Shown here in pieces: positions 8,232 through 58,875 of a DNA stretch of 64,000 nucleotides. Positions within the stretch are counted from its first letter, which is position 1, and the number at the start of each line of letters is the position of its first letter. The translations under genes and the position numbers were made by a program. The stretch is from Verrucomicrobiota bacterium (GTDB taxonomy: Bacteria > Verrucomicrobiota > Verrucomicrobiia > Limisphaerales > J093): NCBI GenBank assembly GCA_012517065.1, contig JAAYVR010000228.1, positions 6,502 to 70,501 of the forward strand, read 5' to 3'. Under the pieces are notes generated by a model. That model saw nothing but the letters and a program-made list of their open reading frames with translations, ran no database searches and was not told where the DNA came from.

Positions 8232-8306
8232 ATGCCGACGATATGCTCTTGATGAAGCCAATGGCAAGTGGACACGTCGGCAGGAGCGCCGCGATTCTTG
8301 GAATGC

Positions 8307-8362: not shown

Positions 8363-8382
8363 GCCGGGCACGTTGATTCCGC

Positions 8383-8835: not shown

Positions 8836-8883
8836 ATTACGGTCTAAGCGGGTTTGGTCAGTTGGGCCGGTGGAATTACCGAG

Positions 8884-10545: not shown

Positions 10546-10646
10546 GAGCACGATTGCTTTTCCAACGCGAAAGCAAGGAAATACCCGGGGTGGGCGGGCA
10601 GCAATCGTCGGTCAGAGCCGTAGCTCAGACAGCACTATTCGGAGTG

Positions 10647-13476: not shown

Positions 13477-14224
13477 CCCGCATTTTCCCAGCCCGGCGTT
13501 CCCGGAACCAAAGTCGCCTGACAGGCACTGCCTCGGCTCCAACGCCCCCTCGGACTGTCAGCCACGCCGGGCTCAGACCCCATGACGTCGCGGAAAGAGC
13601 GATGAACGTTTCCTGACCTACCACGACGATGTTTCCGCACATAAACCGTTGGCAATAAACCAAAGTTTTGGCGAATTGGTGTCACCCCAAATTCTGGTTC
13701 GAGGACCTCTGTGCGGCGGGATCAGGGAATCTGAGACTAGCTCCCAACCACAACCAACTCGTCCGCCCAAAGGTGGGACTCTAACCCGCCGCGGGCGTGG
13801 CTTCGCCCGATGGACGCAAAAACCTATCGCCGTTAGATTTCCGCGTTTAAGCGGGTAACTGAAAGCTTTGCGGCCCTAATTGCGGTACCCCAGCCCTTTG
13901 CGCCTACGCCAAGGGGTGACCTGCAGCGCTCCGAGCCAACTACGTGTCTGTCCCCATATGGCCCCATTCGATCTCGCCGCTGATCCCGATGGTTTTTCAC
14001 GCGCTGCCGAGGATGCAATGGGCGTTGGTAGGCGTGAAGCGCTTGGAGTTCGGCAGCTTGCTGCCGCTTTGTCTTAGGCACAAACAACGTGTCTGTCCCC
14101 GTATCGGCATCCGAGGGGTTACTCCACAGACTTCGGCAACCGCGGATTGGAACAAGGGGCAATTTGCGGGCCGCACCGCAATCAGGAAGCAAAATCCAAA
14201 CAACTCGAATAGAGTGCCAGGCTC
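13477..14224 (+). repeat. Composite repeat island I (modules B, C, D, A, E, A, F, inverted A-variant)
   Basis: B lies at 13477 to about 13620, with arms 13490-13499 and 13564-13573. C hairpin is 13775-13842 (GGGACTCTAAC...GTTAGATTTCC). D is 13843-13941. A copies are at 13942-13961 and 14087-14107. E is about 13975-14086, F is 14108-14205, and the inverted A-variant is at 14208-14224. Copies of the same modules occur at 16577-17500, 36848-37206 and 49604-50225. Confidence 0.85.
14051..14075 (+). terminator. Terminator-like hairpin inside module E
   Basis: CGGCAGC-TTG-CTGCCG is followed by CTTTGTCTT. It lies sense-downstream of the aminotransferase gene. The stem is short. Confidence 0.35.
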
Positions 14225-16581: not shown

Positions 16582-17500
16582 CCCGGAACCTCACTGGCCC
16601 CCCCGGCTCGCATTCACCCATTCCTCCACTCCTGTGAGATTTCAGGGTTAGGCTGCGAATTCGCTCAATTCCTCCGTATCTGCTTCTCTGGCGGCCAGTA
16701 ATGCGGCCACAACGGCACGGCCTTTGGATGAGTCCGAATAGGGGGACAGGCACGTTGTTTGGGCGTTAGAACAAAGCGGCAGCAAGCTGCCGCACTCCAA
16801 GCGCTTCGCGCCTACCAACGCGTAGTGCATCCTCGGCAGGGCGTTAGAAACCATTTGGATCAGCGGCGAGATCAAACGAGGCCATATGGGGACAGACACG
16901 TTGGCGGGTCGGAGCGACGCTGGTGGCCCCTTAGCGCAGGCATAAAGCGCTGGGGTACCGCAATTAGGACCAGAAAGCTCTCAGTTTTCCGCGTCAACGC
17001 GGAACTCTAACGGCGACAGATTGTTCTGAGCATTGGGCGATGCTGCGCCCACGGCCGTTAGAGTCCCGAATTTAGGCGGCTTTGAAAGGTGCATTCATCG
17101 AGCAGTAATAGCTCTGAACGTTGTACGTTGAGCGTTGTACGTTGCACGTTCCCGAATAGATAACCCAAATGATGAGCTAACAAAGCGTTCAACGTACAAC
17201 ATGCAACTCGCAACGTTCAACTGGGTCGCGGTTTTGCCACCCGAATGCCTTTGTTCGCCCGCGGCTGTCAGAATCCCGTCTTCAGGCGGAAAAGTCACAC
17301 TGTGGTTCGAAGTTACTCTGGCGGCGACTGGTCCAGCGGGAGCTTGATCAGAGCGGTCTTCCCTGCTACGGAGTCGCAGCAGATACTCCGCAGCCCGGCG
17401 TGGCCGAGAGGCCTCATCGGGGGGCACGGGAGGCGAGTCAGTGCCTGTCCAGCAACTTTGGTTCCGGCCAAGCCGGGCTGCAAAACACGTGGGCTGACGG
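16577..17500 (-). repeat. Composite repeat island II (inverted relative to island I)
   Basis: K hairpin arms are 16577-16597 and 16631-16652. A(rc) copies are at 16737-16760 and 16883-16903. E(rc) is about 16765-16880, D(rc) about 16905-17000, and C(rc) 17001-17067. An ACGT-rich hairpin lies at 17117-17220. B(rc) runs from about 17345 to 17500 and abuts the cvpA-like stop codon. Confidence 0.85.
16767..16793 (-). terminator. Terminator-like hairpin inside module E (minus strand)
   Basis: The minus strand reads GCGGCAGCTTGCTGCCGC followed by TTTGTTCT. It lies sense-downstream of the minus-strand gene ending at 17501. Confidence 0.35.
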
Positions 17501-18967
17501 TTACCTGACAAAAACGAGGGTCTGGAGATTTGGTGCGATTCGCTCGAGCTTGGCCACCAAACGGTCTTCATCGGCGGTGCAAGTACCTGAGTGCGACTGG
17601 TTTTTGGCGTCAGTAAGTGAGAGTTTATACCTTGAACCGTCGCGTTCCCACGTGCCCTCACCGGCCAGCGAGAACTGCGGAATACCGGGCAAATCGGTGG
17701 GCACAGCCGCGGGTCTTGGTTGTTCCTCAGGCTGAGCCCCGCGGGCACCGCGGCCTCGACCGAAATAACGCTCGGCTATTCTGGGGTCCATGCCCATGGG
17801 TGGCTGAGGCGTTTCGCCTGCAGCGGCTTGAGCCGCGGCAGCGGCCGCTGCAGCAGCCGCCTTCGCGGTTTCGATCATTCTGTTGGCCTGCTCAGTAAGC
17901 TCCACTTTGACTCTGAACTTGTTGTCTGGCGTCGCCATCAGCGTCGTCTTCGCGAGGAAAACGCCGACCAAGGTCTTCAACTTGGCCATTTCTTGAGCGG
18001 ACATGTCGGGGTTCTCTTTTCGCGCGAGGGTAAACGTGGCTGAGACGTCAAGGATCCAGCGCCCGAGGATTTTCTCTTCGTCATATCTGGCCGACCTGCC
18101 GGTGCTCAAGTATTGGATCAGGTCTTTTAGATCGACCTGACTGACTTCGTTGGCGACTTCGGCATTGTTGATGAGGTTCTGGACTTTTGGATGGTTGATG
18201 AGATTCAGGATTGGGGCCTTGGTTTGCCACGCGTTCAGGAATTCAACATCGTTCACGAGGTCTTTGATGTCGTCTCTCTCGCCGAGTGCAAGAAAAGCGG
18301 GGTAGTTCAAGAGACGCTCCAACAACACAGGATTTTGATACAACAACCCGATCAGGTCTGAAGCCAGATAGTAGTTCTCCTTCATCGGGTCCAACGAAGC
18401 GAGGCTCTTGTCCAGGCCGCTTGCCTGAATCTCCTTTCGCACTGAGGCGATTAGTCTCTGCCATGCAGGGCTTTCATCGCCGGTGGTTTGCACGGCTGGA
18501 TACCCGGCCACGTAAAACACCAATCCCAACATCAGACAGTAAATGGTCGCTTCGAGCATCCCGATGCACACGCCCAAACGCTGATTCAATCTTTCCCATC
18601 GGATGCGGGTGTGATCGTCAGTATTGTACTTGTAGTAAAGAGCCACCTTGTGGTGTACGGGCAGACCGATGATCGCGAATATCAAGACGATGAGGATGAA
18701 CACAGCCACTGGCGGCAGGACGAACCACCACAATTGATTGGTCAGGCCGAGCTTCGGCACCAGCGGCCGCAATGTCGGTGCCAGTGGCAACGCGAGAAAC
18801 GCGGCCAACACCAAGCCGACAAACGACACACCTGCGCGGACCGCGCCTCTGTAATATCCTGCGAGACCCAGCAACCCAAAAACTGCTATGACAATCAGCC
18901 ACGTCAGCATGGAAGCGATTGTAGCAGTCGTCGCGCCAAACGCACGAAAAAATGTTGCTGTACTCAT
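17501..18967 (-). CDS. CvpA-family membrane protein with long soluble C-terminal extension
   Basis: The start is set at ATG 18965-18967 (MSTATFFRAF...). Four N-terminal TM helices are typical of CvpA. A poly-Ala tract (AKAAAAAAAAAAQAAAG) lies near the C-terminus. The upstream 107 codons of the track ORF are Arg/Cys/Gln-rich and atypical for a real protein (judged non-coding). Confidence 0.55.
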   Translation of the reverse strand: MSTATFFRAFGATTATIASMLTWLIVIAVFGLLGLAGYYRGAVRAGVSFVGLVLAAFLALPLAPTLRPLVPKLGLTNQLWWFVLPPVAVFILIVLIFAIIGLPVHHKVALYYKYNTDDHTRIRWERLNQRLGVCIGMLEATIYCLMLGLVFYVAGYPAVQTTGDESPAWQRLIASVRKEIQASGLDKSLASLDPMKENYYLASDLIGLLYQNPVLLERLLNYPAFLALGERDDIKDLVNDVEFLNAWQTKAPILNLINHPKVQNLINNAEVANEVSQVDLKDLIQYLSTGRSARYDEEKILGRWILDVSATFTLARKENPDMSAQEMAKLKTLVGVFLAKTTLMATPDNKFRVKVELTEQANRMIETAKAAAAAAAAAAQAAAGETPQPPMGMDPRIAERYFGRGRGARGAQPEEQPRPAAVPTDLPGIPQFSLAGEGTWERDGSRYKLSLTDAKNQSHSGTCTADEDRLVAKLERIAPNLQTLVFVR

Positions 18968-19009
18968 TGAACCAAGACCAACATGCCGGCCTTGGTTTGT
19001 TAAGCGCGC

Positions 19010-19960
19010 GTGATGAAGCTGAGAACAATTGGCTCTGTTGTAACAAGGCTGTTGCCCGTTTGGGTGCTGCTGGCAGGCGTTGTGGGATATGCCCATCCTC
19101 CAGCTCTTACGTGGCTTAATGGCCGGATTGAATGGCTTTTCGCCGCCACAATGTTGGGAATCGGCGCTGTCCTGACGCCGTCGGATTTCCGGCCGATCTT
19201 TCGTCGGCCGCATCTGGCGTTGCTTGGGACAGTGGCGCAGTTCGGCATCATGCCTTTGACCGGTTTCTTGATCGCACGCGCATTGCATCTTCCTCCAGAG
19301 CTAGCCCTCGGGTTTATCCTTGTCGGTTCCGTGCCCGGCGCCATGGCTTCGAACGTTATCTCTTACCTTGCAAAGGCTGATGTTCCATACTCGATTACCC
19401 TGACGACATGCTCGACCATCTTGGCGCCGATTGCGACTCCAGCCCTGACGTTTGTCTTTGGCCGAACGTATGTGGCAATACCATTCTGGCCGATGCTCTT
19501 GAATATTGTTCAGATTGTGATTGTTCCCCTGGTTTTGGGGCTTGCAGTCCGGCATTGGTTTGGCCGGGCCGTTGAAGGTATTTCGTGGTTATTTCCTTTG
19601 TTGTCCAGCATTGCGATTGCGCTGATATGTGGGCTGGTGGTGGCACTCAACACGGATAAACTCGCCCAAGTAACATGGCTGGTTCTGATTGGCGTGGCCG
19701 CACACAACGCAATTGGTCTGTTGGGGGGGTATCTTGCGGGCAGACTGTACAGGTTTGACCCAACCCGCTGCCGAACATTGGCGATCGAGGTCGGCATGCA
19801 AAACGCCGGTCTGGGAGCAGTGCTTGCGCTGAAACATTTCTCAGCCCAGACAGCACTTCCCAACGCCTTGTTTGCAACGTGGTGCATCGTAACTGCATCG
19901 ATCCTCGCTGAGATTTGGGCCGGGCGATCCAGTCATGGCATCACGGTAACCTCGAAATAA
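19010..19960 (+). CDS. Bile acid:sodium symporter (BASS) family transporter
   Basis: Polytopic 316-aa protein with BASS-like blocks (GFILVGSVPGAMASNVISYLAKADV, EVGMQNAGLGAVLA). Confidence 0.75.
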   Translation: MMKLRTIGSVVTRLLPVWVLLAGVVGYAHPPALTWLNGRIEWLFAATMLGIGAVLTPSDFRPIFRRPHLALLGTVAQFGIMPLTGFLIARALHLPPELALGFILVGSVPGAMASNVISYLAKADVPYSITLTTCSTILAPIATPALTFVFGRTYVAIPFWPMLLNIVQIVIVPLVLGLAVRHWFGRAVEGISWLFPLLSSIAIALICGLVVALNTDKLAQVTWLVLIGVAAHNAIGLLGGYLAGRLYRFDPTRCRTLAIEVGMQNAGLGAVLALKHFSAQTALPNALFATWCIVTASILAEIWAGRSSHGITVTSK

Positions 19961-29777: not shown

Positions 29778-29953
29778 CAGCTTTCTTGCTTGGCCTTGCA
29801 CGAATGACAGGATAGTCCGGCAATGCTTTGCATGCAAGCTCTGCGCGCGAGCGCCAAGCCGCGGACCACGAGTGGTGCCATAATAAAATCCTGCATGAGA
29901 TAAGATGGTCGCTCCTCCACTTTGCGCCTCCGCACAACGCGCAAACTACGACT

Positions 29954-29974
29954 ACGTGTCTGTCCCCATATTGG
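29954..29974 (+). repeat. Solitary A-motif copy
   Basis: ACGTGTCTGTCCCCATATTGG. Confidence 0.7.
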
Positions 29975-30415
29975 CACTCTTGGATTTCAGGTCCGGGCAC
30001 CTTGACTAGAATAGCCGCATTCACACTAACGGCCAGGATGAACCCACTGCACACTTTCAGTGCTCCCCATCCTGTTCATGGGTGAAAGCATCTTGTAATC
30101 GAGAGGGTTGCTTGGCCGGTCCCGTAAACGCCCATGCCTCCAGAAAAGACAGTGGTCCATTCAGACGCCAGTTGTCTTTGAAGAGAGCCCGACAGATTCG
30201 CACCCACATTTGCCTCCCCCTGCCGCATACATCAACAAGCAGACCAGAGCTCAAATGAGCTCGTCACTCCCGCTGCACTTGTCTGGATGACGCGCAGGGT
30301 GTTTTGTCCGCTGAGCCGGTGAGGTTTCCGGGCCGGACTGCTGCGTACTGAGAAATGCGCCGTGAAGACAAACGGGGGCTTCCATTGCGACGGGGCCGCA
30401 TGTTAGAATTCGCGC

Positions 30416-36709: not shown

Positions 36710-36847
36710 TCCTCGCGTTGCCTCTCACCGAAAAGGCCGCTTGAGGAAGACGGCACAGTCCGGCACTTTGCGTCTTCACGCAAAGTGAACACACGCCGAT
36801 GCACTGACGTGCTTTGAAAGCCACATGAAACTCTTCCGCCTAAAGGC

Positions 36848-37206
36848 GGGACTCTAACAGCCGCGGGCTCGACATCGCCGCATGCGCCGGGCAACCTATC
36901 GAGGTTAGAGTTCCCCGTTTACGCGTTAACGAGAAAACGGTCTGTCCCAGCTCCACCGCGCTGGGAACCGTGCGCCCCTGCTGCTCATGAAATCGTGCGT
37001 AAGCCAGGGCGGGCGCTCCGCGCACACCACAAACAAAGTGTCTGTCCCCATATCGGCATGCGGGGGGTTGCCACACAGACCTCATCTGCCGCGGATTGGA
37101 ACAAGGGACAGTCAGCGGGCCATGCCGCAATCCGAGGGCAAAACCCAGACAACGAGCCTGTCCCTCTATTTGGGGCCACGCCCAAACAATGAGCCTGGCA
37201 CTCTAT
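36848..37206 (+). repeat. Composite repeat island IV, left part (modules C, A, F, two A-variants)
   Basis: C hairpin is 36848-36914 (GGGACTCTAAC...GTTAGAGTTCC). A is at 37031-37056 and F at 37057-37153. A-variants are GAGCCTGTCCCTCTATT (37154-37170) and GAGCCTGGCACTCTAT (37191-37206). Confidence 0.8.
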
Positions 37207-37798
37207 CGCGTCATGAAAAGCCCAGTGAGAGGGGCGTGCTCGAAAGGGCACAAAACTCTCAAACGGAACTCTGTGGGTAACCAATCCCACCCGGCAAAGG
37301 CTAACCACCAGCCGGAAGCGAGTTTTGCGTAGTTGTCAGCAATGACGGCACGAAGCGTAAACAGCCAGTGTCAAAGCCGTGTGATTGAGCCTCGAAATAA
37401 AGGTGTTGCTGGAGCCTTCGTTGTTAGAGTTGCGGGGGCAGCATCGAAGTCCCGTTATGGTGAGGGATGCAGGTCCGACCGGGGTCAGAGAGCATGGCAA
37501 AGGCACAAGAGGGTTCCCTGGGAACATGAGAGACCCGACGAGGTCCTGAGACAAATACCGGAGTGGTCGCCACCGGGTATCAACGACCAGGCCACCGAGC
37601 TGCCGCTTTCCGGCGAGGTGGAGCGAACAGAGGAAGCAACTCAGGTATCCGTGCTCAACCGACAAAGGGAGAGTGCGGAGAAGCCCGGCGGGAGTCTTAG
37701 TCTGCTCATAGTACTGGTAGAAAGCCGGCGAACGGGGCCGCCCGGAGCCGGGGAGTAGGGAAGGGGCAGACACGGTTACGGGACCGTCGTGAGGAAAC

Positions 37799-39142
37799 AT
37801 GAAAGACACACTGAGGTCAGAAATCGTGTGCACGAAACAACGGCGGATAGCGGAGATAGCACGTCAGCATCCATTGGAACGGCTGACCGCACTGAACCAC
37901 TATCTGGATGTAGAGTGGCTGAAGGAAGCCTATTGGCGGATCAGGCCTGAGAGTGCGCCTGGGGTTGATGGGCAGAGATTCAGCGACTACGGAGAGCACC
38001 TGGAGGAAAACCTCAAGTCCTTGTTGGAACGGGCCAAGAGTGGGCGCTACGTTGCTCCGCCGGTACGGCGGGTGTACATACCCAAGGAAGGGAGCAATGA
38101 GAAGCGGGCCATTGGGGTACCGAGCTGCGAGGACAAGGTATTGCAACGGGCAGTGGCGATGATACTGGAACCGATCTGGGAGGAGAGCTTTTACGAGTTT
38201 TCCTACGGATTTCGGCCCGGCAGATCGCCGCATCAGGCCCTGGAAGCCTTTTGGCGAGGGGCCACCGAGCATGGGGTGCGATGGGTGCTGGAAGTGGACA
38301 TTCGGAAGTATTTTGACAGTGTGAATCGGCAGAAGCTGATGGAGATACTGAGTGGACGGATCGGGGATGGAGTGATACTGCGGCTGGTGAGCAAGTGGCT
38401 CCACGCGGGGGTAATGGAAGATGGGCAACTGCACTATCCCGAAGCAGGGACACCGCAAGGAGGGGTGATATCACCTCTGTTGTCGAACATCTACCTGCAC
38501 GAGGTCTTCGACAAATGGTTTGCGGAGGTTGTGCGTGGGCGGATGGAAGGCAAGGTGGTGGCGGTGCGGTTTGCCGACGACCTGGTGATCGGTTTCACGC
38601 ATCGGAGAGATGCGGAGCGGGTATATCAGGTTATTTTCCGGCGATTCGCGAAGTACGGGCTGCAGCTACACCCGGAGAAGACGCGGCTGGTGCCGTTTGG
38701 GCGACCTGAGAAAGGGGGCTTGGACGGGGATCGGCCACATCGAGCTGGGACGTTCGACTTTCTGGGGTTTACTCATTATTGGGGGAAATCCTGGAGAGGG
38801 TATTGGGTGATCAAGCGCAAGACTGCGAGGAAGCGACTACGACGGACACTCAAGTCGATAGGCGACTGGTGCCGACGGAACCGGCATAGCGGGATGTTGG
38901 ACCAGTTTGTGGCACTGGTGAGGAAGCTGGAGGGGCATTATGCCTTTTACGGGATAACCGGCAATGGGCGATGTCTTGAACAGGTTCGAGCCGGGGCACG
39001 ACGAGTGTGGCGGAAATGGTTAGCGAGGCGCAGTCGAGGTTCTGAGAGCCTGAGTTGGGAACGGATGCAGCGGTATTTGGACGAGACATTTGTCTTTCCG
39101 CCAGTGCGCATTGTTCACAGCATCTACGGTGCGAAGCCGTAA
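37799..39142 (+). CDS. Group II intron reverse transcriptase/maturase (no endonuclease domain)
   Basis: RT blocks: APGVDG, RRVYIPKEGSNEKRAIGVPSCEDKVLQRAV, YGFRPGRSPHQAL, LEVDIRKYFDSV, GTPQGGVISPLLSNIYL, VRFADDLVIGF. X/thumb region: FDFLGFTHYWG...YYAFYGITGN. It ends without HNH/En motifs. Confidence 0.9.
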   Translation: MKDTLRSEIVCTKQRRIAEIARQHPLERLTALNHYLDVEWLKEAYWRIRPESAPGVDGQRFSDYGEHLEENLKSLLERAKSGRYVAPPVRRVYIPKEGSNEKRAIGVPSCEDKVLQRAVAMILEPIWEESFYEFSYGFRPGRSPHQALEAFWRGATEHGVRWVLEVDIRKYFDSVNRQKLMEILSGRIGDGVILRLVSKWLHAGVMEDGQLHYPEAGTPQGGVISPLLSNIYLHEVFDKWFAEVVRGRMEGKVVAVRFADDLVIGFTHRRDAERVYQVIFRRFAKYGLQLHPEKTRLVPFGRPEKGGLDGDRPHRAGTFDFLGFTHYWGKSWRGYWVIKRKTARKRLRRTLKSIGDWCRRNRHSGMLDQFVALVRKLEGHYAFYGITGNGRCLEQVRAGARRVWRKWLARRSRGSESLSWERMQRYLDETFVFPPVRIVHSIYGAKP

Positions 39143-39148
39143 CTGGAG

Positions 39149-39217
39149 GAACCGTGTGCGGGAAAACCGCTCGCACGGGTCTGTGGGGGAGCCGGTGGGA
39201 GACCACCGGCTCTACCC
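39149..39217 (+). ncRNA. Intron domains V and VI
   Basis: GAACCGTGTGCGG-GAAAA-CCGC(TC)GCACGGGT has an asymmetric 2-nt bulge like domain V. It is followed by GGGGGAGCCGGTGG-GAGA-CCACCGGCTCT(A)CCC, with a bulged adenosine like the branch point of domain VI. Confidence 0.7.
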
Positions 39218-39226
39218 GGATTTGCG

Positions 39227-39420
39227 TCCTTGTTGGATGTGCGTATGTGGCAGGTGGATGTACTGAATCAGTTCATTTGCCGGCGCGTTCGGTTGCCAAG
39301 GGGCGAAGTGGCCGCGGAGCAACCACCTTTTAGCGGGGCGAACAAGGCGCTGATAGCGGCGAGCACCAGTTGGGCATTATAGCAGCGCAAGCTGGTCGGT
39401 CTGAGGCGGAGCCTCGCCAG
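39227..39420 (+). repeat. Module G (right part of island IV)
   Basis: TCCTTGTTGGATGTGCG...CTGAATCAG...TTCGGTTGC...GGCATTATAGCAG...GTCGGTCTGAGGCGGAGCC aligns by eye with 50027-50225 over about 190 nt (roughly two-thirds identity). Confidence 0.65.
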
Positions 39421-45974: not shown

Positions 45975-46193
45975 GCTGCAGTTCCCCTACCTTTTATCGG
46001 ACCTCTTCACAACAGAAAAGTTTAGGTTAGGGCATCGACCACAGACACCACACACGACGCGGATAGGTATATTGTGCCAGGCACAGAATGTCATCTGCAC
46101 CGATTCCGGTGCGCGACAGAGCGCCAACCATACCCGACAGTCATGCTGTCTTTGTCGATGCCTTCGCCACAACCTTTGTCTTATGCACAAACA

Positions 46194-46214
46194 ACGTGCC
46201 TGTCCCCATATCTG
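46194..46214 (+). repeat. Solitary A-motif copy upstream of the sugar ABC operon
   Basis: CTTTGTCTTATGCACAAACAACGTGCCTGTCCCCATATCTG has the same extended context as the copies in islands I, II and VI. It lies about 95 nt upstream of the ATG at 46309. Confidence 0.7.
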
Positions 46215-46308
46215 CAGCCAGATGTACCAAGGCGTTGAATTGGGTGAGATTCCGTAGTTAGCAGGTGTCCGGAATTCGATTGCGGTCGATCTGTGCTGTG
46301 TTAAGAGA

Positions 46309-48692: not shown

Positions 48693-49603
48693 AACGGCTT
48701 TTGGCGTTCATTCTGGCACTTGCATTGTCCGGATGCGCACAGCGCAAGTCCGATGAAGGGCGCGTGTTGATAGGGGTTTCATTGCTGAACCTGTCGAACG
48801 AATTCATTGTGATGCTGCACCGTGCAATGGAAACCCGCGCCGCCGAGCTGGGAGTGAAGCTCATCGTTAATGACGCACAGCGAAGCGCAGACCGCCAGGT
48901 CCAGCAGGTCGAGACTTTCATCGCGCAGCGCGTGGACGCGATCATCCTGAACCCTTGCGAAGTGGAGGCCAGTTCGCCCGCTGTCGAGAAAGCAATCGCT
49001 GCCGGCATTCCCATAATCAACGTCAATTCGGAAACAAGAGCTGCGCCGACAGCGTTTGTTGGGTCGCGCGATGAGGAATCGGCAAGGCTCGCAATGGAGT
49101 ACATTGCCCGGCGGCTGGACGGCCGGGGCAACGTGGTCATGATGCATGGATTCATGGGACAAGCCGCGCAGATCAAGCGCGATCGTGGTGCCAAGGATAC
49201 CCTTGCAAAGTTTCCCGGCTTGAAGCTCATCGCCGAACAAAGCGCCGAGTGGGACCGCGCAAAGGCCATGAGCCTAATGGAAAACTGGATTCAATCGCTC
49301 GGTGCGAAGATAAATGCCGTGTTCGCCCAAAACGATGAAATGGCAATGGGGGCGCTGTTGGCCCTTGAGCAAGCAGGACTCAAAGACAAGGTGATAGTGG
49401 TTGGTGTAGATGCCATTTCTGATGCACTTCAGGCTGTCAAAGCAGGCCGATTGGATGCGACCGTGTTCCAAGATGCCCGCGGCCAGGGACAGGGCGCGGT
49501 TGATTTGGCGGTCAAGATCATCAGAAAAGAACCTTTCGAAACACAGGTGTACATCCCTTTCCAACTCGTGACCCGCGAAAACGCGGACAAGTACCTGAAT
49601 TAG
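48689..49603 (+). CDS. Sugar ABC transporter periplasmic binding lipoprotein (RbsB-like)
   Basis: Lipobox LALSGC. Periplasmic-binding-protein type I blocks (IGVSLLNLSNEF, VDAIILNP, VVGVDA). Confidence 0.8.
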   Translation: MKRLLAFILALALSGCAQRKSDEGRVLIGVSLLNLSNEFIVMLHRAMETRAAELGVKLIVNDAQRSADRQVQQVETFIAQRVDAIILNPCEVEASSPAVEKAIAAGIPIINVNSETRAAPTAFVGSRDEESARLAMEYIARRLDGRGNVVMMHGFMGQAAQIKRDRGAKDTLAKFPGLKLIAEQSAEWDRAKAMSLMENWIQSLGAKINAVFAQNDEMAMGALLALEQAGLKDKVIVVGVDAISDALQAVKAGRLDATVFQDARGQGQGAVDLAVKIIRKEPFETQVYIPFQLVTRENADKYLN

Positions 49604-50225
49604 ACCGCATATTTCCCAGCCCGGCGTAGCCCGAACCAAAGTCGCCTGACGGGCAACGCCCCCGGCCCTTGCACCCTCCGGACCTTCACCCACGCCGGGC
49701 TGGGCAATATGCCCTGCGACTCCGTCGCAAGAAAGAGCGCGCTGATCCCGATGGTTTCTCACGCGCTGCCGCGGATTCAGTGGGCGTTGGTAGGCGCGAA
49801 GCGCTTGGAGTGCGGCAGCTTGCTGCCGCTTTGTTGTTAAGCACAACCAACGTGCCTGGAACCAGATCGGAATGACCTACAAAACTACGTGTCTGTCCCC
49901 ATATCGGCATCCGAGGCGTTCCTCCACACACTTCGGCAACCGCGGCTCCGAACAAGGGACAATCTCCGGAGCATGCCGGAATCCTGGGGCAAAAACCCAA
50001 ACAATGAGCCTGTCACTCTATTTAAGTCCTTGTTTGATGTGCTTGGGTGCGAGGGGCATGTGCTGAATCAGAATCAATTCTTTTGTCGCTGCATTCGGTT
50101 GCGGCGGGAGGAACTGGCCGGGGAGCGGCCACATTTTATCGAGGCGGGCATGCGCCGAGAGCGGCAAGTATCCGGCGGGCATTGTGGCACGGCATGCCCA
50201 GTCGGTCTAAAGCAGAGCCACGCTA
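49604..50225 (+). repeat. Composite repeat island VI (modules B, E, A, A, F, A-variant, G)
   Basis: B is 49604 to about 49744, with a perfect 13-bp stem (49615-49627 with 49692-49704) and a small hairpin at 49715-49729. E is 49745-49846. A degenerate A lies at 49847-49868 and A at 49885-49905. F is 49906-50005, the A-variant 50006-50023 and G 50027-50225. Confidence 0.85.
49810..49836 (+). terminator. Terminator-like hairpin inside module E
   Basis: GCGGCAGCTTGCTGCCGC is followed by TTTGTTGTT, sense-downstream of the rbsB-like gene. Confidence 0.35.
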
Positions 50226-50283
50226 AGTTCTGGCTCAGGCTTTCCGTGTGTGCAGGGCTCAGTGTGGTGATGGCAAGGTGGTT

Positions 50284-51663
50284 TCAATGCACTTCGGGTT
50301 TGGATGGCCTTGCAGCCAACTGCCGCAGCATTTCTATTGTTTGATCGATCAACCGCTCGCCGGTGCCGGGTTCAACGTAACTGTGATAGCCGGTCCAGAC
50401 CTGATATCCGCCAAGCTTGAAGGCCGTCATGTCGGGGACGTAGCCGATCCAGTCGTTGGCCAGCCCAACAACATACGTGTAGCGGAATGGCGACCGGTTC
50501 TTGATGTCGATTCCGAGCTGAGTAAAAAGCTCGGATGGCACGCCCACAAAGGCGATGTCGCCGATCAGCATGACCTGCAGCCAAGTGGTCTTGGTCTGTC
50601 CTTGCAACGGGGCCAACTGGCGTCGCATGGACCGAAACACCTCGATAATCGGATCAGCGTGCGATGGAACATACTGTCGGCAATACCGCGTCACAGCAGC
50701 GTCTTCCTCCGCCTCGTCAAACTGCCGAACCTTGAACGTGAAAGGCTGTCTCAGCGCGGCAAGTTGATGCGTTGGGAATGGCTTTGACATTGCCATGGTT
50801 TCTTTGACGGCTTGCTTGATCCGTTGCGCCAAGGTTTCCCCGGACAACTTCAGGTTGTGCGTTGAACCGAAGGCGCCGGCGAGGAAACACACCTTGCCAC
50901 CCAACTCTGATTCGAGGTCCTGGGCCGCCAGACCGTAAAAGCCAGGTGACCGTTTCCCTGGTTGCCTCGTGCCGATGTTGTGCGTCGAGTGATTGAAGAT
51001 CAGCGCCCGGAGCTGATCCGATTGACCACGAAAAGCGAGCACGGGCAACTCAGCGTCAAAAGGTCCGGTCGGGCGCACCACGTTGGTGCGCGGGCCAACC
51101 CAGTAGATTTGCCCATCTGCAAGGCGCAACCGGCTGTTCTCGCCCACTGTATTCTCTTCTCCTTGTGCAAAAAACAATGTGCACGGCTCGGCCGTCAGAT
51201 TGGCATTTGCCGACCGGACAGCTCTTACGATCCCCTCCTGCAGAGTGCGGCAAAAAGATTCTTCTGCTCCGTAACCGTGCACGAGCACCGTGCTTGGGGC
51301 ATGGTGGGTGTGCGTGCAATGAATCAGAAGGCGGCCTCTCGCCAGGCCCGCCTCGCGCTCGATCTCGCCAAAAACCGGTTCAAGCAAGTCTTTCGTGAGC
51401 ATAAGCACGTCGCAAGACACAATCCCCAGCTTGCCGAACGGCTCTTGCTCGATGACAACCGCCACAACCCGCAGAGGGGCTTCCTGGCCCTGAGCATTGC
51501 CTGCAGTGATGCCTCCGGCAATGACCATTCCATCGTCAGCATCGAGTTCCACCGATGCGGTTCCCACGCGCAACGGCTTGAGATCGGACTGGCCAGCCGC
51601 ATTCTGAAAACACCCGACAGCCTGGGCCAGCAACGCCGCAGCAGCCCAATTAACAAAGCTCAT
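50284..51663 (-). CDS. Secreted neutral-ceramidase-like hydrolase, paralog of 10647..12077 (tentative)
   Basis: Start is at ATG 51661-51663 (MSFVNWAAAALLAQAVG, signal peptide). Contains HCTHTHHAPS. Confidence 0.5.
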   Translation of the reverse strand: MSFVNWAAAALLAQAVGCFQNAAGQSDLKPLRVGTASVELDADDGMVIAGGITAGNAQGQEAPLRVVAVVIEQEPFGKLGIVSCDVLMLTKDLLEPVFGEIEREAGLARGRLLIHCTHTHHAPSTVLVHGYGAEESFCRTLQEGIVRAVRSANANLTAEPCTLFFAQGEENTVGENSRLRLADGQIYWVGPRTNVVRPTGPFDAELPVLAFRGQSDQLRALIFNHSTHNIGTRQPGKRSPGFYGLAAQDLESELGGKVCFLAGAFGSTHNLKLSGETLAQRIKQAVKETMAMSKPFPTHQLAALRQPFTFKVRQFDEAEEDAAVTRYCRQYVPSHADPIIEVFRSMRRQLAPLQGQTKTTWLQVMLIGDIAFVGVPSELFTQLGIDIKNRSPFRYTYVVGLANDWIGYVPDMTAFKLGGYQVWTGYHSYVEPGTGERLIDQTIEMLRQLAARPSKPEVH

Positions 51664-54085: not shown

Positions 54086-54240
54086 CTTTCAGGATCGCCT
54101 GTGCACCACGGCCAAATGGATAGGATTGGTTCTTCACACGCTGTGACAACGGCACAAATCAACAGGCCTCAGCCCGCATATTTCATACCCTGAGCAGTCT
54201 GCGAAACGGGTGTCTTCAAGAAATCAAGGAATATGCGTGC

Positions 54241-54309
54241 CCCGGAAATCTCGCCGCCTGAGCAGGCCAAGGCACCCAAAACTTCATTCCGGTGAGATTT
54301 CCGGGTTAG
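54241..54309 (+). repeat. K-type hairpin repeat, 57 nt beyond the tmRNA 3' end
   Basis: Arms are CCCGGAAATCTCGCCG (54241-54256) and CCGGTGAGATTTCCGGGTTAG (54289-54309). The loop ends in CCCAAAACTTCATT, as in the copy at 10412-10484. Confidence 0.8.
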
Positions 54310-54365
54310 ACTAATCCTGAGTGGCCAGACTCGATTCAGGTTAATGGATTCAGGTTATTTGAAAG

Positions 54366-54717
54366 TGGTGGAGGCGGCGGGAATCGAACCCGCGTCCCTG
54401 ACAGAATAACCGGCTGCGACTACATGCTTAGTCGGATAAGAGTATTCGACCGGCGGTACCGATCCGACGCGAGCCGCCAAGTCTATTTCGCTGTTTTTAT
54501 CTCGGCCGGCTGCGCAGCAAACGCCACAACCGACCCAACCTGCTGCCTTCGTTCAGCCACCCCAGCAGGTGTCAGGCGGTGAACGTCGCGGCATTAGGCC
54601 GCGAGTGCCAATTCTTCGTTGGCTGTTTTGGTTCGATCCGATGATTAACGAGGCCAACGGATCATCCTCGGCATGCCGCCACCGGCGCATCCAACAGGTC
54701 GAAACCAGTGCGCCCCC
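54366..54717 (-). ncRNA. ssrA: tmRNA (transfer-messenger RNA)
   Basis: The minus strand starts GGGGGCGCACTGGTTTCGACC and ends GCGGGTTCGATTCCCGCCGCCTCCACCA (tRNA-Ala-like acceptor/T-arm). The internal tag frame GCC AAC GAA GAA TTG GCA CTC GCG GCC TAA (54621 down to 54592) gives ANEELALAA. Confidence 0.9.
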
Positions 54718-54780: not shown

Positions 54781-54855
54781 CCTAACCCGGAAACCTCATC
54801 GGAATGAACCTTTGGGTCTGTTGGTTTGGTCAGGCGCTGAGATTTCTGAGCTAAG
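54781..54855 (-). repeat. K-type hairpin repeat (reverse orientation), 64 nt upstream of the tmRNA 5' end
   Basis: The plus strand reads CCTAACCCGGAAACCTCATCGGAATGAACCTTTGGG ... GCGCTGAGATTTCTGAGCTAAG. The reverse complement has the K architecture (degenerate left arm, loop ending CCCAAAGGTTCATT, right arm CCGATGAGGTTTCCGGGTTAGG). Confidence 0.7.
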
Positions 54856-54955: not shown

Positions 54956-57319
54956 TCATGGCTGTCCTCCGATTGCTTTCTGGAGTTGTTGGACAAGCTC
55001 TTCTAGGCGAGCCAGCCGTTCCCGGAGCGCCCGGTTCTCCGCCTCCAGTTCCCGATGCAGTTCCTGAACCGCCGCCGCCGTGTAAACGGTCAGTGGATGA
55101 GTGTCCACCTGTAGAATCTCTGAGCCGTCCGGCAGCTTCTCGCCGCTGCGGTGCACATGCTCCGGAAACACTTGGGCAAACTCCTGCGCCACCACGTTCA
55201 GATACCGCCGATCCTTGACCTCCGGATGCGCCGCCCGGTAGGCGTCGGTGTAGCGAAAGCTCACCAGTCGCACCCGGGCCAGGGTCGCCAGCGCGTTGGT
55301 CACCGTGGCAACGTCAGTCTTGATGCGTGCGTCGGAGTTGGCCAGCCACGAGCCAGCGGTGGTCTTGGAGGCGTTGCCCTCCACCTCCAGCGCATTGGCG
55401 GCCGGGGTGCGGCCAATGCCCACCTTGCCGTCGTCCCATCGCAACACGGCTTTGGCTCCCCCGCGGTGCGTGCCCAGGACCCCGCCGGCCCAGCCGTAGA
55501 GCACCGGACCGTCCGGGGCCAGCCCGGCAAACGTCTTGCCCGACCCATACCAGCCCAGGCCTTGGTAAGTGTCGGTGCCGCCCCGCAAGCGCAGGTCTTT
55601 GTCGTTGATCCGCACGTCGCCTTTGACGTCCAGCAGGGCATTGGTCGGCGGGCCGCCGATACCCACCCCGCCAGTGGCGCGGATCAGGAATTGATTCGTT
55701 CCGGTGGTGGCGAAATCCTCGTCGGTCGAGTCAGCCCAGACGAAGCTACCGGTGTGGATGGCCCTAGCCCGGGAGCCCGCCGCAAAGGCGAAATTGGTGG
55801 CGAAGTTGTATCGGCCGCCGGGGATGGTAGCATACTTGGCACCGTCCCCGACGGTGTTGCCCTCGCCCCCGCCGATGGTCGCGGCGCGGGCGCTGGTCTG
55901 AATCGTGTTGTCGCCGCCCCCGCCGATGGTCGCGCACCAGGCGTTGGTCTGAATCGTGTTGCCCTCGCCCCCGCCGATGGTCGCGTACTCGGCGTTGGTC
56001 TGAATCGTGTTGAGGTAGCCCCCACCGATAGTCGCCCCGGCGGCGTTGGACTGAATCGTGTTGTAGTAGCCGCCGCCGATGGTCGCGCGCAGAGCGTAGG
56101 TCTGAATCGTGTTGCCCTCGCCCCCGCCGATGGTCGCGTACTCGGCGTTGGTCTGAATCGTGTTGTCGGAGCCCCCGCCGATGGTCGCGCACCAGGCCTT
56201 GGTCTGAATCGTGTTGCCCTCGCCCCCGCCGATGGTCGCCCACCAGGCGTAGGTCTGAATCGTGTTGCGCTGACCCCCGCCGATGGTCGCGCGCAGAGCG
56301 TTGGTCTGAATCGTGTTGCCCTCGCCCCCGCCGATGGTTGCGTGCCAGGCGTTGGGCTGAATCGTGTTGTCGGAGCCCCCGCCGATGGTCGCGTACCTGG
56401 CGTTGCGCTGAATCGTGTTTCCCTTGCCCCCCGACACCGTGCCGAAGTCGGCTTCTACACGATTGGTGTGGGCGAATTCATCGTAATTGGTTGCCCCGCC
56501 GCCAGCAATGGTCGCGCCCACCACGCCCGCAGCCACATAGTTCCACGGCGAGCCCCCTATCACATTCGGCGCACCGTCAGGGGTAGTGTCTCCGTCGCTG
56601 CTCGAATCACCGGGGTCTTCAAGCCGCAGGGCGCGCAGCCCGTTGACCCTCAACTCCAAGGGCTGGCGGTCCGTTGTGCCCAAGAAATATGTCCCTGGCG
56701 TGGTGCCGGCGTTGCCACTCAGCAGCCAGACCTGGTTGGTCCGCGCCACGTTGGGCCCCAGACGCCCGTCCGGCACCGTTCCACTGGCCAGTTGACCGGC
56801 ATTGAGCGAAGTCAACCCGGCGCCGCTGCCACTGAAACTGTTGGCGGCGTTGTTGAACGTCACTGCGCGAGAGTAGGTGCCAGCCAGGTTGGCCGAGGGA
56901 ATCACTCCGCTCAGTTGGCTGGCGGGCAGGGTGCCGCTCAGGTTGCTGGCAGTAATGGCATAGGGCGTGGGAGTCAGTTTCTGACGCGGACCAAGTGTTG
57001 TGAACGGGCCGATGGATGTGCGCACCTCCAATTGTAGCCAGCGGTCTGTGCCGGGGAAGTTTGTCCCAAAGTCCAGCAGCAGCACAAACAGGCCGTTGCT
57101 GACGGCCACGACTAGCTGCGGAGGCGTGTTGTCGGCCACTTTGGTGCCGCCGCTGGCTGCATCCCAGAGCGTGGGCTGGAACTCGGCATTGCCCGTATAA
57201 GGCTGGCCATTGACTTCCAGCCGCCCTTGGTAGGTGAAGGCCGTGCCTTGCGCCACGGCCGAGACTACGCTGCTGGCCAAAACCAGCAGCAGGGTGTTCA
57301 TGATGGTTTTGGTTTTCAT
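54956..57319 (-). CDS. Secreted tail-fibre-like protein: about eleven 20-aa repeats plus C-terminal Peptidase_S74 intramolecular-chaperone domain
   Basis: Start is at ATG 57317-57319 (MKTKTIMNTLLLVLASSVVSAVAQG). The repeats follow ATIGGGxxNTIQTNAxx. The C-terminal block SDARIKTDV..L..LARVRLVSFRY..RYLNVVAQEF..VFPE.V is followed by a coiled coil, as in endosialidase-chaperone/tail-fibre domains. Confidence 0.8.
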   Translation of the reverse strand: MKTKTIMNTLLLVLASSVVSAVAQGTAFTYQGRLEVNGQPYTGNAEFQPTLWDAASGGTKVADNTPPQLVVAVSNGLFVLLLDFGTNFPGTDRWLQLEVRTSIGPFTTLGPRQKLTPTPYAITASNLSGTLPASQLSGVIPSANLAGTYSRAVTFNNAANSFSGSGAGLTSLNAGQLASGTVPDGRLGPNVARTNQVWLLSGNAGTTPGTYFLGTTDRQPLELRVNGLRALRLEDPGDSSSDGDTTPDGAPNVIGGSPWNYVAAGVVGATIAGGGATNYDEFAHTNRVEADFGTVSGGKGNTIQRNARYATIGGGSDNTIQPNAWHATIGGGEGNTIQTNALRATIGGGQRNTIQTYAWWATIGGGEGNTIQTKAWCATIGGGSDNTIQTNAEYATIGGGEGNTIQTYALRATIGGGYYNTIQSNAAGATIGGGYLNTIQTNAEYATIGGGEGNTIQTNAWCATIGGGGDNTIQTSARAATIGGGEGNTVGDGAKYATIPGGRYNFATNFAFAAGSRARAIHTGSFVWADSTDEDFATTGTNQFLIRATGGVGIGGPPTNALLDVKGDVRINDKDLRLRGGTDTYQGLGWYGSGKTFAGLAPDGPVLYGWAGGVLGTHRGGAKAVLRWDDGKVGIGRTPAANALEVEGNASKTTAGSWLANSDARIKTDVATVTNALATLARVRLVSFRYTDAYRAAHPEVKDRRYLNVVAQEFAQVFPEHVHRSGEKLPDGSEILQVDTHPLTVYTAAAVQELHRELEAENRALRERLARLEELVQQLQKAIGGQP
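55853..56440 (-). repeat. About ten near-identical 60-bp tandem units inside the tail-fibre-like gene
   Basis: The unit GTTGCCCTCGCCCCCGCCGATGGTCGCG...GGCGTTGGTCTGAATCGTGTT repeats head to tail. The differences between units cluster in two short windows per unit. Confidence 0.85.
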
Positions 57320-57401
57320 GGTCTTGACTTTGGTTTGGCATTTCGGGCTCTGGGTTTCAGTCTTGTTTAGGACTTCGAGATTCAGATTTCGGGTTTCCGC
57401 C

Positions 57402-57580
57402 TCACGGTTTGTGAAGGCGGTAGAACTTGTTGCCGGTCGGTGTTGGCTCGATGAACTGCTGATTCGGGCAGTTCGTTTGGTGTGGCAGTGAGACGACCGC
57501 CCAGGGGGCAGCCACGCTGGGCAGCGCGTTGGCCGCCAGAATTGCGGCGCCTGTTCCAAGCCGCCAACCCCAGATGTGCC
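57402..57580 (-). pseudogene. Possible orphan remnant of the C-terminal ...FYRL module
   Basis: The C-terminal part of track ORF 57402..57779 reads WRLGTGAAILAANALPSVAAPWAVVSLPHQTNCPNQQFIEPTPTGNKFYRLHKP, resembling the terminal module of ORF 1..4585. No credible N-terminal body is present. Confidence 0.25.
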
Positions 57581-57949
57581 ACCGTGGCTGCACTGTTGAT
57601 GGAAAGAAACGCGTGAGACATGCAGAAAGGATGACTGGGAGCGGGAGAGATTCAGAGCACACCACAAATCCCGGCGCGATGATCAACACGCGCCACAGGC
57701 AACGAGCGCCGTATCGCTCCATTCGCATGGGCACCTCCGACGCGGTGTTGTCACACTCGGTCTTACAGCAGTCTAGCACCTTGTATCAGAGGCGGCGTCG
57801 GATGTCAATTCATTTCTGGTGTCGCGGTTACATGCCGCGTTCAAGAATCAGCGAACCGGGCAAATCAACGTTGGCGCGCCGGGCTGCAATTCCGGGTCTG
57901 CTCGCTTTGTCCGAACGTGGCTGGCTGGAAAGAGTCGCCTCAGAATAAT

Positions 57950-58448: not shown

Positions 58449-58741
58449 GTGAGCCGTACCCCGCCAGAAGCCTGTTCCCCGCTAGGCTTCGATTTCCTAG
58501 TAGAGCACCGGATAGAGCAGGCCATGGTCAGCGAGCATGGCAAAGGCGCAAGAGAGTTCCCTGGAAACATGAGAGACCAGTCGAGGTCCTGAGGCACAAA
58601 CCGGAGTGGTCGCCACCAGCTATCAACCACCAGGCCACCGAGCTGCGACTTCCCGGCGAGGTGGAGCGAACAGGGGAAGCGACTCAGGTATCGGTGATCA
58701 AGCGACAAAGGGATAGTAGCGAGAGGCCCGACTGGAGTCTT
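58449..58741 (+). mobile_element. Truncated group II intron copy (5' part of the ribozyme only)
   Basis: 58523-58741 aligns by eye with 37478-37705 of the full intron (for example GGTCAG.GAGCATGGCAAAGGC.CAAGAG.GTTCCCTGG.AACATGAGAGACC...GGAGTGGTCGCCACC...GGCGAGGTGGAGCGAACAG). Homology stops at GGAGTCTTAG, where module B starts. The candidate 5' end is GTGAG at 58449. Confidence 0.7.
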
Positions 58742-58875
58742 AGCCCGCACATTTCCCAGCCCGGCGTAGCCGAAACCAAGGTTGCCTGACTGGCAGTGAC
58801 ACGGTGCCTGCGCCCCTCGGGGCAGTCTGCCACGCCAGGCTGCGAAATATCTGCTGCGACTCCGTCGCAGGCCGT
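58742..58875 (+). repeat. Module B copy
   Basis: CCCGCACATTTCCCAGCCCGGCGTAGCCGAAACCAAGGTTGCCTGAC...CCACGCCAGGCTGCGAAATATCTGCTGCGACTCCGTCGCAGG has the same architecture as 13477, 49604 and 17500(rc). Confidence 0.8.

Follow-up and report, generated by a model that had tools for sequence, protein, structure and literature searches.

To our knowledge, good descriptions of mosaic arrays in intergenic DNA exist only for a few proteobacteria, in the form of bacterial interspersed mosaic elements (BIMEs) and neisserial intergenic mosaic elements (NIMEs), and the origin of such arrays is still unexplained. BIMEs are mosaics of repetitive extragenic palindromic (REP) units with fixed linker motifs; a REP is an imperfect palindrome of 20–40 bp, and successive REPs alternate in orientation. 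One end of a REP carries the tetranucleotide tag GTAG or CGTC (PMC3733652). In NIMEs, the junction repeat dRS3 is a 20-bp inverted repeat (ATTCCC-N8-GGGAAT), and such arrays were reported as not observed outside Neisseria (PMC1797815). Here, we describe islands of short repeat modules, designated A to H and K, in a window of 64,000 nt, which is the whole stretch of DNA that was analyzed (contig JAAYVR010000228.1 of a Verrucomicrobiota bacterium, positions 6,502 to 70,501; G + C content, 57%). The closest known architecture is that of the neisserial NIME, followed by the Escherichia coli BIME, but the islands are members of neither because their junction repeat A is asymmetric and unlike dRS3, their modules follow a co-oriented grammar from start to end, and they have no GTAG/CGTC tag. 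We interpret the islands, with a probability of roughly 0.6, as two-layered, lineage-specific, selfish repeat DNA that is non-coding and non-autonomous and belongs to one Verrucomicrobiota lineage.

According to this interpretation, the first layer would comprise hairpin-forming elements whose arms are inverted (B, C, K, and H) and which resemble MITEs (transposable elements of miniature size with inverted repeats). The second layer would consist of polar cassette arrays in which every cassette is delimited by the non-palindromic junction repeat A of 26–28 nt; its cassettes would be D/E (~128 nt), F (~98 nt), H-type cassettes (110–400 nt), and a 19-nt mini-cassette, with G or G2 in the terminal position. 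Composites such as island VI (B-D/E-A-F-A3-G, ~620 nt) would be copied into many spacers, whatever the direction of the genes, and the arrays would then remain in place while cassettes are acquired, dropped, or exchanged at the A repeats. B and K may be transposed in trans by a putative transposase, and recombination at A would be the mechanism of remodeling. The terminator in E would serve the host as a transcription stop, and A would act as a recognition sequence.

The NIME arrangement of a short junction repeat between many families of 19–214-bp cassettes in intergenic arrays recurs here, as does the use of the junction repeat as an integration site for a mobile element, which is the Nf prophage in Neisseria and a group II intron in the islands (PMC1797815). 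Other small elements also lie inside the arrays, as in NIMEs. NIME arrays further keep their positions between related genomes while repeat number and content vary, and such a pattern was suggested here by three orthologous comparisons (window/L016, L059/L062, and L008/L101; L numbers denote fetched loci), all of them between short-read metagenome contigs. The differences concern A, which is longer than dRS3, unrelated to it in sequence, and non-palindromic; the arrays, in which all A copies are co-oriented and a near-fixed grammar starts with B and ends with G or G2-K; and the host phylum.

Repeat finding and self-BLAST of the window recovered all repeat relationships between the regions in which a previous sequence-only reading had noticed the modules. 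The self-BLAST alignments paired 13763–14117 with 17079–16721 (82% identity, inverted), 13978–14203 with 49740–50004 (74%), 16747–16865 with 49858–49740 (88%), 37031–37171 with 49882–50023 (80%), and 39220–39417 with 50020–50223 (72%). The copies are thus diverged, as that reading had stated, but its estimate of roughly 65–85 percent by eye gives way to a measured identity of 72–94% depending on the segment. Two details of the modules were also corrected: D and E, listed as separate modules, form one unit of ~128 nt, and the stem of B, given as 13 bp, is actually ~21 bp long. Copies of the A core (ACGTGYCTGTCCCCATAT, at most 3 mismatches) numbered 11 in the window, compared with 0.01 expected from shuffles. 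B was present at 13477, 17497 (minus strand), 49604, and 58745, H in four copies, and K in three to four. With crude gene calls, modules were found in 10 of the 21 gaps of at least 150 nt and made up ~34% of the gap bases, so that the claim that they fill most long intergenic regions was overstated; all gaps longer than 450 nt that are not unannotated ORFs do carry modules. The same islands were carried by three contigs from independent assemblies that are more than 99% identical to the window (L117, L046, and L107), and they are therefore not assembly artifacts of the window.

To determine copy numbers, one nhmmer profile was used per module, and the window and 105 loci were annotated; the sample consisted of the window, one Verrucomicrobiota metagenome-assembled genome (MAG), and ~100 metagenome contigs. 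It contained, without redundancy, 315 copies of A, 99 of D/E, 85 of H, 70 of K, 64 each of F and B, 57 of C, and 28 of G. When species-representative genomes were scanned for the A core, the MAG JARYMD01 was the sole genome among the matches listed, and at least six of its contigs carried B, C, D/E, F, G, and K at 70–95%; contigs of this MAG often terminate within the repeats. The exact A 20-mer retrieved 99 loci in JGI/ENA metagenome contigs from a handful of samples, with 279 fuzzy copies of A. The modules are thus not confined to the window; confinement to it would, according to the sequence-only reading, have counted against its view. Homologues of the sugar-binding protein whose gene flanks island VI were annotated as Verrucomicrobia. 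For island VI, PLSDB and INPHARED contained no match, nor did IMG/VR for the A 20-mer, and a plasmid, phage, or viral origin was rejected on the basis of these searches. The modules also had no match in Rfam 15, either at the gathering threshold or with E values up to 5, where only transfer-messenger RNA (tmRNA) and group II intron domains matched; the earlier statement that no described family corresponds to the modules therefore holds for Rfam.

The module order shared by four islands, which had also been noticed previously, was borne out and was kept in ~100 further loci as a near-grammar of B, (C), A, D/E, A, F, A, and then G or K. Among the non-redundant neighbors, B was followed by D/E 31 times and by C 15 times, C by A 30 times and by another C 10 times, D/E by A 85 times, and F by A 52 times, while A was followed by A (68), F (63), D/E (42), G (13), K (12), or the intron (7). 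Adjacent pairs were co-oriented in 506 cases, and exceptions came only from the palindromic modules K and C and from H, whose orientation is invariably opposite to that of A. At least 9 loci whose flanks are unrelated contained the block of island VI, with 84–87% identity. Relative to their flanking genes, islands were divided almost evenly among the four classes of orientation (20/20/20/19), and spacers between co-directional, convergent, and divergent genes occurred around them in proportions that resembled the ordinary background. At the level of architecture, these features fit the earlier suggestions of REP/BIME-like mosaics and of non-autonomous mobile elements: the modules are dispersed, multi-copy, restricted to a lineage, non-coding, and without gene-orientation bias, some have inverted arms, and their stems are decaying.

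The junction repeat A has the consensus cAAACAACGTGYCTGTCCCCATATcg and no dyad symmetry. Copies that are solitary or first in an array share only cAAACA-ACGTGYCTGTCCCCATAT-cg with the other copies, which indicates that A is a self-contained asymmetric unit of 26–28 nt. The segments between one A and the next fall into discrete families, of which the most abundant are F (~98 nt; 51 unique sequences), D/E (~128 nt; 40), and the 19-nt mini-cassette (34); H-containing segments of 110–400 nt (11) and several lineage-specific families were also found. The A directly after F was always the A3 variant (..GAGCCTGTCAC..), suggesting that whole composites were copied as units. A role of A as a promoter was rejected because island VI contains no sigma-70-like site and the islands are randomly oriented relative to genes; the absence of the A copy at 46185 from the orthologous upstream/promoter region of L016 also counts against it. 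By inspection, A fits the consensus of neither sigma-54 nor extracytoplasmic function sigma factors. A CRISPR array was rejected as well, since the spacing of A is irregular (37 to ~400 nt), the "spacers" are repeat families, and no cas genes were seen. Likewise, the arrays are not integron cassette arrays, given the lack of dyad symmetry in A, the non-coding nature of the cassettes, and the absence of an integrase (intI) from the scanned ORFs.

It is conceivable, although unlikely, that A is read by a site-specific recombination or insertion system, guided by protein or RNA, that assembles and exchanges the non-coding cassettes in polar order. If so, Verrucomicrobiota would possess an "integron-like" or NIME-like machine for non-coding cassettes, with B as its entry module and G or K as its exit, and the group II intron would be merely one of several readers of A.

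Class C group II introns insert behind terminators or at attC sites, and other group II introns reside in insertion sequence (IS) elements. The window contains a complete group II intron at 37207–39221 on the plus strand, located precisely at the junction of A3 and G in island IV. Its reverse transcriptase (RT) ORF (37799–39142) matched RVT_1 with an E value of 8e-40, and Rfam assigned it to class D1D4-6, with domains D1–D4 at 37281–37494 (RF02005, 135 bits) and D5/D6 at 39147–39221 (RF00029, 43 bits). The previous reading had noted that no transposase that could mobilize the modules lies in the window; no DNA transposase was indeed found, but the intron with its RT is a mobile element. Where arrays lack the intron, the A3-G junction reads ..CTCTAT/TTGCGTCC.., and in island IV the sequence is ..CTCTAT/CGCGTCATG...CCCGGAT/TTGCGTCC.. 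(slashes mark the junctions). In the non-redundant loci, all seven intron 5′ ends directly follow an A (nine profile matches in all). The exon-binding site 1 (EBS1) loop of the intron in the window, TAGAGT (approximately 37426–37431), pairs with ACTCTA of the A3 just upstream, and that of the intron in L074, TATGGG, pairs with CCCATA of the standard A. The two introns are 93% identical and share their first 66 nt, but their EBS1 sequences differ at three of the six positions. Covariation of EBS1 with the A variant indicates compensatory retargeting, in which the 3′ part of A serves as intron-binding site 1 (IBS1). These junctions and predicted pairings show that EBS1–IBS1 base pairing directs the homing of the group II intron, for which the 3′ edge of A is the target.

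The likeness to the described introns lies in homing to an intergenic sequence that is present in many copies and offers a safe site, and in EBS–IBS recognition, whereas the target here is the junction repeat of a mosaic array and not a terminator stem or attC, the class is D1D4-6, and the 5′ end is non-canonical. This end, as deduced from the intron-less junctions, is CGCGUC.. / CGCGUCAUG.. (canonical, GUGYG). The Rfam match to D1–D4 begins 74 nt inside the intron, and a GUGGG is present at 37273, 66 nt inside, but it cannot explain the difference in EBS1. Neither the junction role of A nor the intron that targets it had been recognized in the sequence-only reading, whose interpretation is, overall, partly supported.

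The intron could also be more than a guest of the arrays. A retromobility model, in which RNAs derived from the intron, or passenger RNAs, are inserted at the 3′ edge of A by the intron RT or its ribonucleoprotein, each of them carrying in a new A at the 3′ end, would account for the point at which cassettes diverge after A (..CCCCATAT), which coincides with the intron insertion point. It would also account for the intron remnants at A junctions, as in L060, where A is directly followed by D5/D6, and in the L059/L111 lineage, where another A comes after the initial 23 nt of the intron; furthermore, the feature at 46174–46219 resembles a 5′-truncated D/E + A unit. However, D/E, F, and G showed no similarity to intron domains in the Rfam scans, the constant placement of A3 after F is more easily reconciled with composites that are copied as wholes than with insertions made one after another, and seven copies of the intron stand against 315 of A. 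We therefore regard retromobility as very unlikely and favor selfish composites that were copied as units.

The modules B, C, K, and H are hairpins. B has inverted arms of 21 bp and a small tail hairpin; 85% of its stem pairs are canonical, with typically 2–5 (about 3) mismatches per copy, and these mismatches look independent, with little association between the arms. K (CCCGGAAATCTCACC..GGTGAGATTTCCGGG) has arms of 14–16 bp, C carries GGGACTCTAAC..GTTAGAGTTCC, and H has the core hairpin GCGGCCG-GGGA-CGGCCGC. A B-type terminus (GCCCGCATATT) is common to B, to a 69-nt mini element at 54172–54240, and to long composites; those bounded by inverted B-type termini measure 983–998 nt in L095 and L096, and their far end adjoins K.

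A preference for a tetranucleotide was evident at the edges of these elements. On the left of B, NTAR was found in 26 of 48 cases, TTAG in 17 of 48, and GTAG in 2 of 48; YTAR was found left of K in 28 of 63 cases, right of it in 11, and on both sides in 3. YTAR (CTAG, CTAA, TTAG, and TTAA) occupies 0.24% of positions in the window and all fetched loci. TGA is the stop codon of 62% of the long ORFs, and TAG and TAA are thus scarce, yet ORFs of at least 80 codons that end at B had TAG or TAA as their stop in ~11 of 15 cases, compared with 38% of long ORFs overall. Many copies of B and K begin within a few bases of a gene stop because YTAR is rare and comes mostly from stop codons. At 58742, B starts exactly behind a TTAG borne by an intron (intron, gagtcTTAG/tctgctc; site, gagtcTTAG/cccgcac). 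This TTAG, where the next B begins, is the 3′ end of a 227-nt internal fragment of the same group II intron (58526–58752, plus strand), which is 87% identical to 37483–37709 and truncated at both ends. The YTAR beside B and K has the appearance of a preferred target or of a tag that marks the terminus.

Similar tags are known from REPs. The REP-associated tyrosine transposase (RAYT), of the IS200/IS605 family, cleaves single-stranded hairpins beside a conserved tetranucleotide, and IS200/IS605 elements insert 3′ of a target tetranucleotide. The position of B right after TTAG or NTAR without evident duplication, as in IS200/IS605, and the hairpin nature of B, C, H, and K would be expected if the modules were true REP/BIME elements that are made and moved by a RAYT. 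Moreover, a high abundance of GTAG-type REPs has been reported for the verrucomicrobium Opitutus terrae (PMC3733652). The islands share with BIMEs a small kit of motifs in stereotyped combinations, hairpin units, a possible terminator or insulator role, and a conserved tetranucleotide at one edge of the hairpin unit B, and the earlier proposal of REP/BIME-like mosaics is appropriate in this sense. It fails for strict membership: the predominant tag of B is TTAG and not GTAG, CGTC does not stand at an element end, B has 21-bp arms around a loop of 60 nt, and only the H core is of REP size. In addition, the commonest unit, A, is not a palindrome, the units are longer (100–200 nt), the arrays are co-oriented, and there is no preference for the 3′ ends of genes. 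No RAYT or other transposase domain was detected in the 20 ORFs scanned in the window, which represents 64 kb of the genome. An origin from RAYT is thus quite improbable.

B, K, and C resemble bacterial MITEs such as Correia/NEMIS, or elements derived from IS630 and IS5 that have TA or YTAR targets. The three modules have terminal or sub-terminal inverted arms, are shorter than 200 nt, contain no ORF, occur in tens of diverged copies, and are flanked by TA-containing tetranucleotides, and the long composites with inverted B-type termini add to this likeness. Terminal inverted repeats were found in B (21 bp), K (14–16 bp), C, and the 69-nt mini element. The differences from MITEs are that no unambiguous target-site duplication and no parent IS with the same ends were found, and that D/E, F, G, and A have no inverted arms and hence are not explicable as MITEs. 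In the search for a parent, no pair of B-type termini containing an ORF was present in ~700 kb of loci. The genes bracketed by K are ordinary metabolic enzymes, with no autonomous parent there, and those between inverted copies of A in L030 are housekeeping genes (Rce1-like, AIR synthase-related, TsaE, and TsaD). The only IS seen, an IS21-family element at 1198–3800 of L111, lies in the loop of a B; it encodes istA (rve and Mu-transposase C domains) and istB, its target duplication is TCATAA, and its terminal repeats (5 + 3) are AATTCGGACA / TGTCCGAAT. It was rejected as the parent because its ends are unrelated and it was itself inserted into B.

Proximity to stop codons also raises the question of whether the islands act as RNA. 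Of ~64 B copies, 13 were located within 12 nt of a co-directional stop codon, and the four islands of the window had given the impression of a polar 3′-UTR extension of the upstream gene. This possibility was rejected, since the gene that B faces is co-directional in 27 cases and divergent in 23, and the orientation of the islands is balanced.

In eight full copies of the island VI block, the identity was 78–84% in B, 82% in F, and 86% in A3, compared with 94% in the 3′ half of D/E; it was also 94% in A2, a value partly inflated by the A-based selection of loci. The consensus of 55 D/E sequences consists of a terminator and two small invariant hairpins, and the stem of the terminator-like E is intact in 52 of the 55 unique copies, two copies having an A-U to G-C swap. 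Further terminator candidates are present in G on the plus strand and in the B loop on the minus strand. The functional core is thus probably the 3′ half of D/E, with its putative intrinsic terminator, together with A, both being more constant than the other parts. From the sequence conservation, we infer that the host retains E as a putative terminator or insulator. A small protein in D/E (MVSHALPRMQWALVGAKRLECGSLLPLC..) was rejected, as variation at the three codon positions (0.27/0.32/0.33) lacks 3-nt periodicity; the apparent ORF also contains in-frame stops or frameshifts in several copies.

The islands might instead be functional RNAs, either structured 3′-UTR elements or small RNA genes, with D/E as a small RNA of ~100 nt with its own terminator, B as a hairpin near the stop codon, and A as a processing or punctuation site. 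The intact D/E hairpin and T-tract, the conservation of the 3′ half against ~80% in neighboring segments, and the B copies close to stop codons are compatible with this idea. Nevertheless, there was no Rfam match, only one of the 20 D/E pairs showed a double change, and the stem of B is decaying; F with its flanking A copies gave no consensus structure (−0.37 kcal/mol, 40 sequences). Covariation in the proposed stems, to which the sequence-only reading had pointed as a test, was therefore almost lacking. The fold of island VI had a z-score of −1.3 on both strands, no better than shuffles, and island VI has no sigma-70-like promoter. Random orientation relative to genes, including the 23 B copies that face the 5′ end of a divergent gene, and the lack of any spacer at the orthologous site in 80%-identical relatives also disagree with functional RNAs. 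Taken together, a family of 3′-UTR or small RNA genes is rather improbable.

Comparison of related loci revealed how the islands differ between relatives. In relatives with 80% identity at the protein level, no spacer is present downstream of the sugar-binding protein gene. In L016, which is 89% identical, B occupies exactly the same place as in the window but is only 72% identical and closer to another B of the window, and the sequence after it is unrelated to island VI; L059 and L062 showed the same pattern, in which position is kept and content differs. Between L008 and L101, identity is 96% across the flanking genes, G, A3, and F, beyond which the two differ in the cassette that lies exactly between two A copies. 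Between L095 and L096, the flanks are identical but the numbers of C and D/E are different. These cassette polymorphisms point to exchange at A, although they come from low-coverage short-read assemblies and some may be chimeric. In the only clean same-strain indel, L107 lacks 276 nt of the window (13736–14011), comprising C, A, and half of D/E, with a GAG microhomology at the junction; module-precise excision was rejected there in favor of an ordinary microhomology deletion or an assembly difference.

The persistence of island positions between related species, together with the fact that no other piece is as conserved or as widely shared as A among lineages with different cassettes, could also mean that A is a host-selected binding site for a protein, such as a nucleoid-associated protein, a regulator, or a recombinase, and that arrays are kept for the benefit of the host; a recombinase would promote the exchange of neighboring genes. 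For the dRS3 of NIME arrays, a similar proposal has been made (PMC1797815). The explanation by host selection is highly improbable, given that the spacer is entirely missing from the 80%-identical relatives, L016 lacks the A at 46185, no preference for orientation or position relative to genes was seen, and the conservation of A is partly an ascertainment effect of the search pattern.

Several points weigh against selfish, non-autonomous repeats. Neither the window, nor the ORFs tested, nor the fetched loci yielded a transposase or recombinase with matching ends; because no such enzyme was identified, we infer the mobility and the mechanism of propagation rather than observe them. The loci compared included no clean pair of empty and filled sites with a target duplication, and, as TA is self-complementary, YTAR at both ends of K can equally be a TA/YTAR duplication or an extended inverted arm. 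The strain-level differences in cassettes derive from low-coverage short-read metagenome assemblies, several of which seem to be re-assemblies of the same data, so that some of the differences could be chimeric joins at repeats. A is non-palindromic and only 26 nt long, yet 19 copies are solitary, and their own dispersal is without an explanation. A terminator role alone does not account for the conservation of the D/E 3′ half beyond the hairpin, which extends 40 nt upstream of E. Finally, the metagenome loci were picked by the exact A 20-mer, which inflates the apparent conservation of A.

If our interpretation is correct, the islands are an independent, sequence-unrelated counterpart of BIMEs and NIMEs in another phylum, with an unusually strict grammar and an asymmetric junction repeat. 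A molecular reader of the junction repeat is known here, namely the group II intron with its EBS1 retargeted to two A variants, and this gives a second system for asking how mosaic arrays are built. In practical terms, the repeats break short-read assemblies of the lineage, with many contigs ending inside them, would furnish ready-made intergenic terminators, and constitute safe-harbor sites for an intron of potential use in targeting.

The positions of the modules in the window are listed in Table 1.

Table 1. Repeat modules and islands identified in the window (positions in nt from its first letter).
Feature	Position	Strand	Description
Island VI, B	49604–49739	+	Directly 3′ of the TAG stop (49601–49603) of the sugar-binding protein gene; 21-bp inverted arms CATATTTCCCAGCCCGGCGT / ACGCCGGGCTGGGCAATATG, loop of ~60 nt, small tail hairpin ctgcgactccgtcgca
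Island VI, D/E	49740–49839	+	3′ half near-invariant; terminator-like hairpin GCGGCAGCTTGCTGCCGC + T-tract at 49812–49829
Island VI, degenerate A′	49843–49866	+	ACGTGCCTGGAACCAGATCGGAAT, followed by ~19-nt mini-cassette
Island VI, A	49880–49906	+	..AAACTACGTGTCTGTCCCCATATCG
Island VI, F	49907–49993	+	Cassette family of ~98 nt without conserved secondary structure
Island VI, A3	49994–50016	+	CAAACAATGAGCCTGTCACTCTAT; position-specific A variant, always after F
Island VI, G	50017–50225	+	Terminal cassette, ends ..CGCTA/A; second terminator-like hairpin at 50115–50131
Island I	13477–14222	+	B 13477–13600, ~160 nt unassigned, C 13763–13932, A 13933–13960, D/E 13961–14077, A 14078–14106, F 14107–14203
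Island I, end A3	14205–14222		Inverted in place relative to islands IV and VI (..caaacaaCTCGAATAGAGTGCCAGGCTCGaca)
Island II	16585–17497	−	B 17364–17497 (after the stop of gene 17501–19288), C 17180–17289, C 16935–17079, A 16883–16903, D/E 16765–16882
Island II, end	16585–16764	−	A 16738–16764, alternative terminal cassette G2 16648–16737, K 16585–16647
Island IV, left	36836–37206	+	C 36836–36950, A 37028–37055, F 37056–37142, A3 37144–37169, second A3 37177–37206
Island IV, right, G	39222–39420	+	3′ exon of the group II intron
A + H region	8306–8883		A copies 8306–8334, 8342–8363 (−), then tandem array of three H; period 148–151 nt, each unit with the hairpin GCGGCCG-GGGA-CGGCCGC
Partial G, K, and H	10332–10574		Partial G 10332–10417 (−), K 10417–10485, H 10511–10574
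Two A3-like copies	4616–4647, 4745–4776	+	Bracket a ~110-nt cassette whose family recurs in L054, L067, and L110
Solitary A	29951–29976	+	
Solitary A	46174–46219	+	Behind the last ~20 nt of a D/E tail; absent from the orthologous spacer of 89%-identical L016
69-nt mini element	54172–54240	+	B-type termini GCCCGCATATTTC...GGAATATGCGTGC; fused to K 54242–54310
Inverted K	54782–54846	−	Brackets the tmRNA gene (54366–54717) together with K 54242–54310
Solo B	58745–58875	+	

The inverted A3 at the end of island I suggests a local inversion. Island II contains an extra palindrome at approximately 17130–17240, between its two C copies, with short repeats of the acgttgaacg / caacgtacaacg type; motifs similar to these (gttgaacgtttcacgttgaacgtt) were also present in cassettes of the L059/L111 lineage. 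The tmRNA gene, which lies on the minus strand and encodes the tag ANEELALAA, is flanked not only by the two K copies but also by the 69-nt mini element. Three long, almost certainly spurious ORFs (7074–8687, 49274–49846, and 49889–50344) traverse the H array and island VI and would mislead automatic annotation. In the same-strain contig L117, 55150–58632 of the window is missing, which reflects either an assembly collapse or a real indel. An ORF of 903 aa on the minus strand (54956–57667) contains ~17 tandem repeats of 51 nt, corresponding to 17 aa, at 55701–56554.

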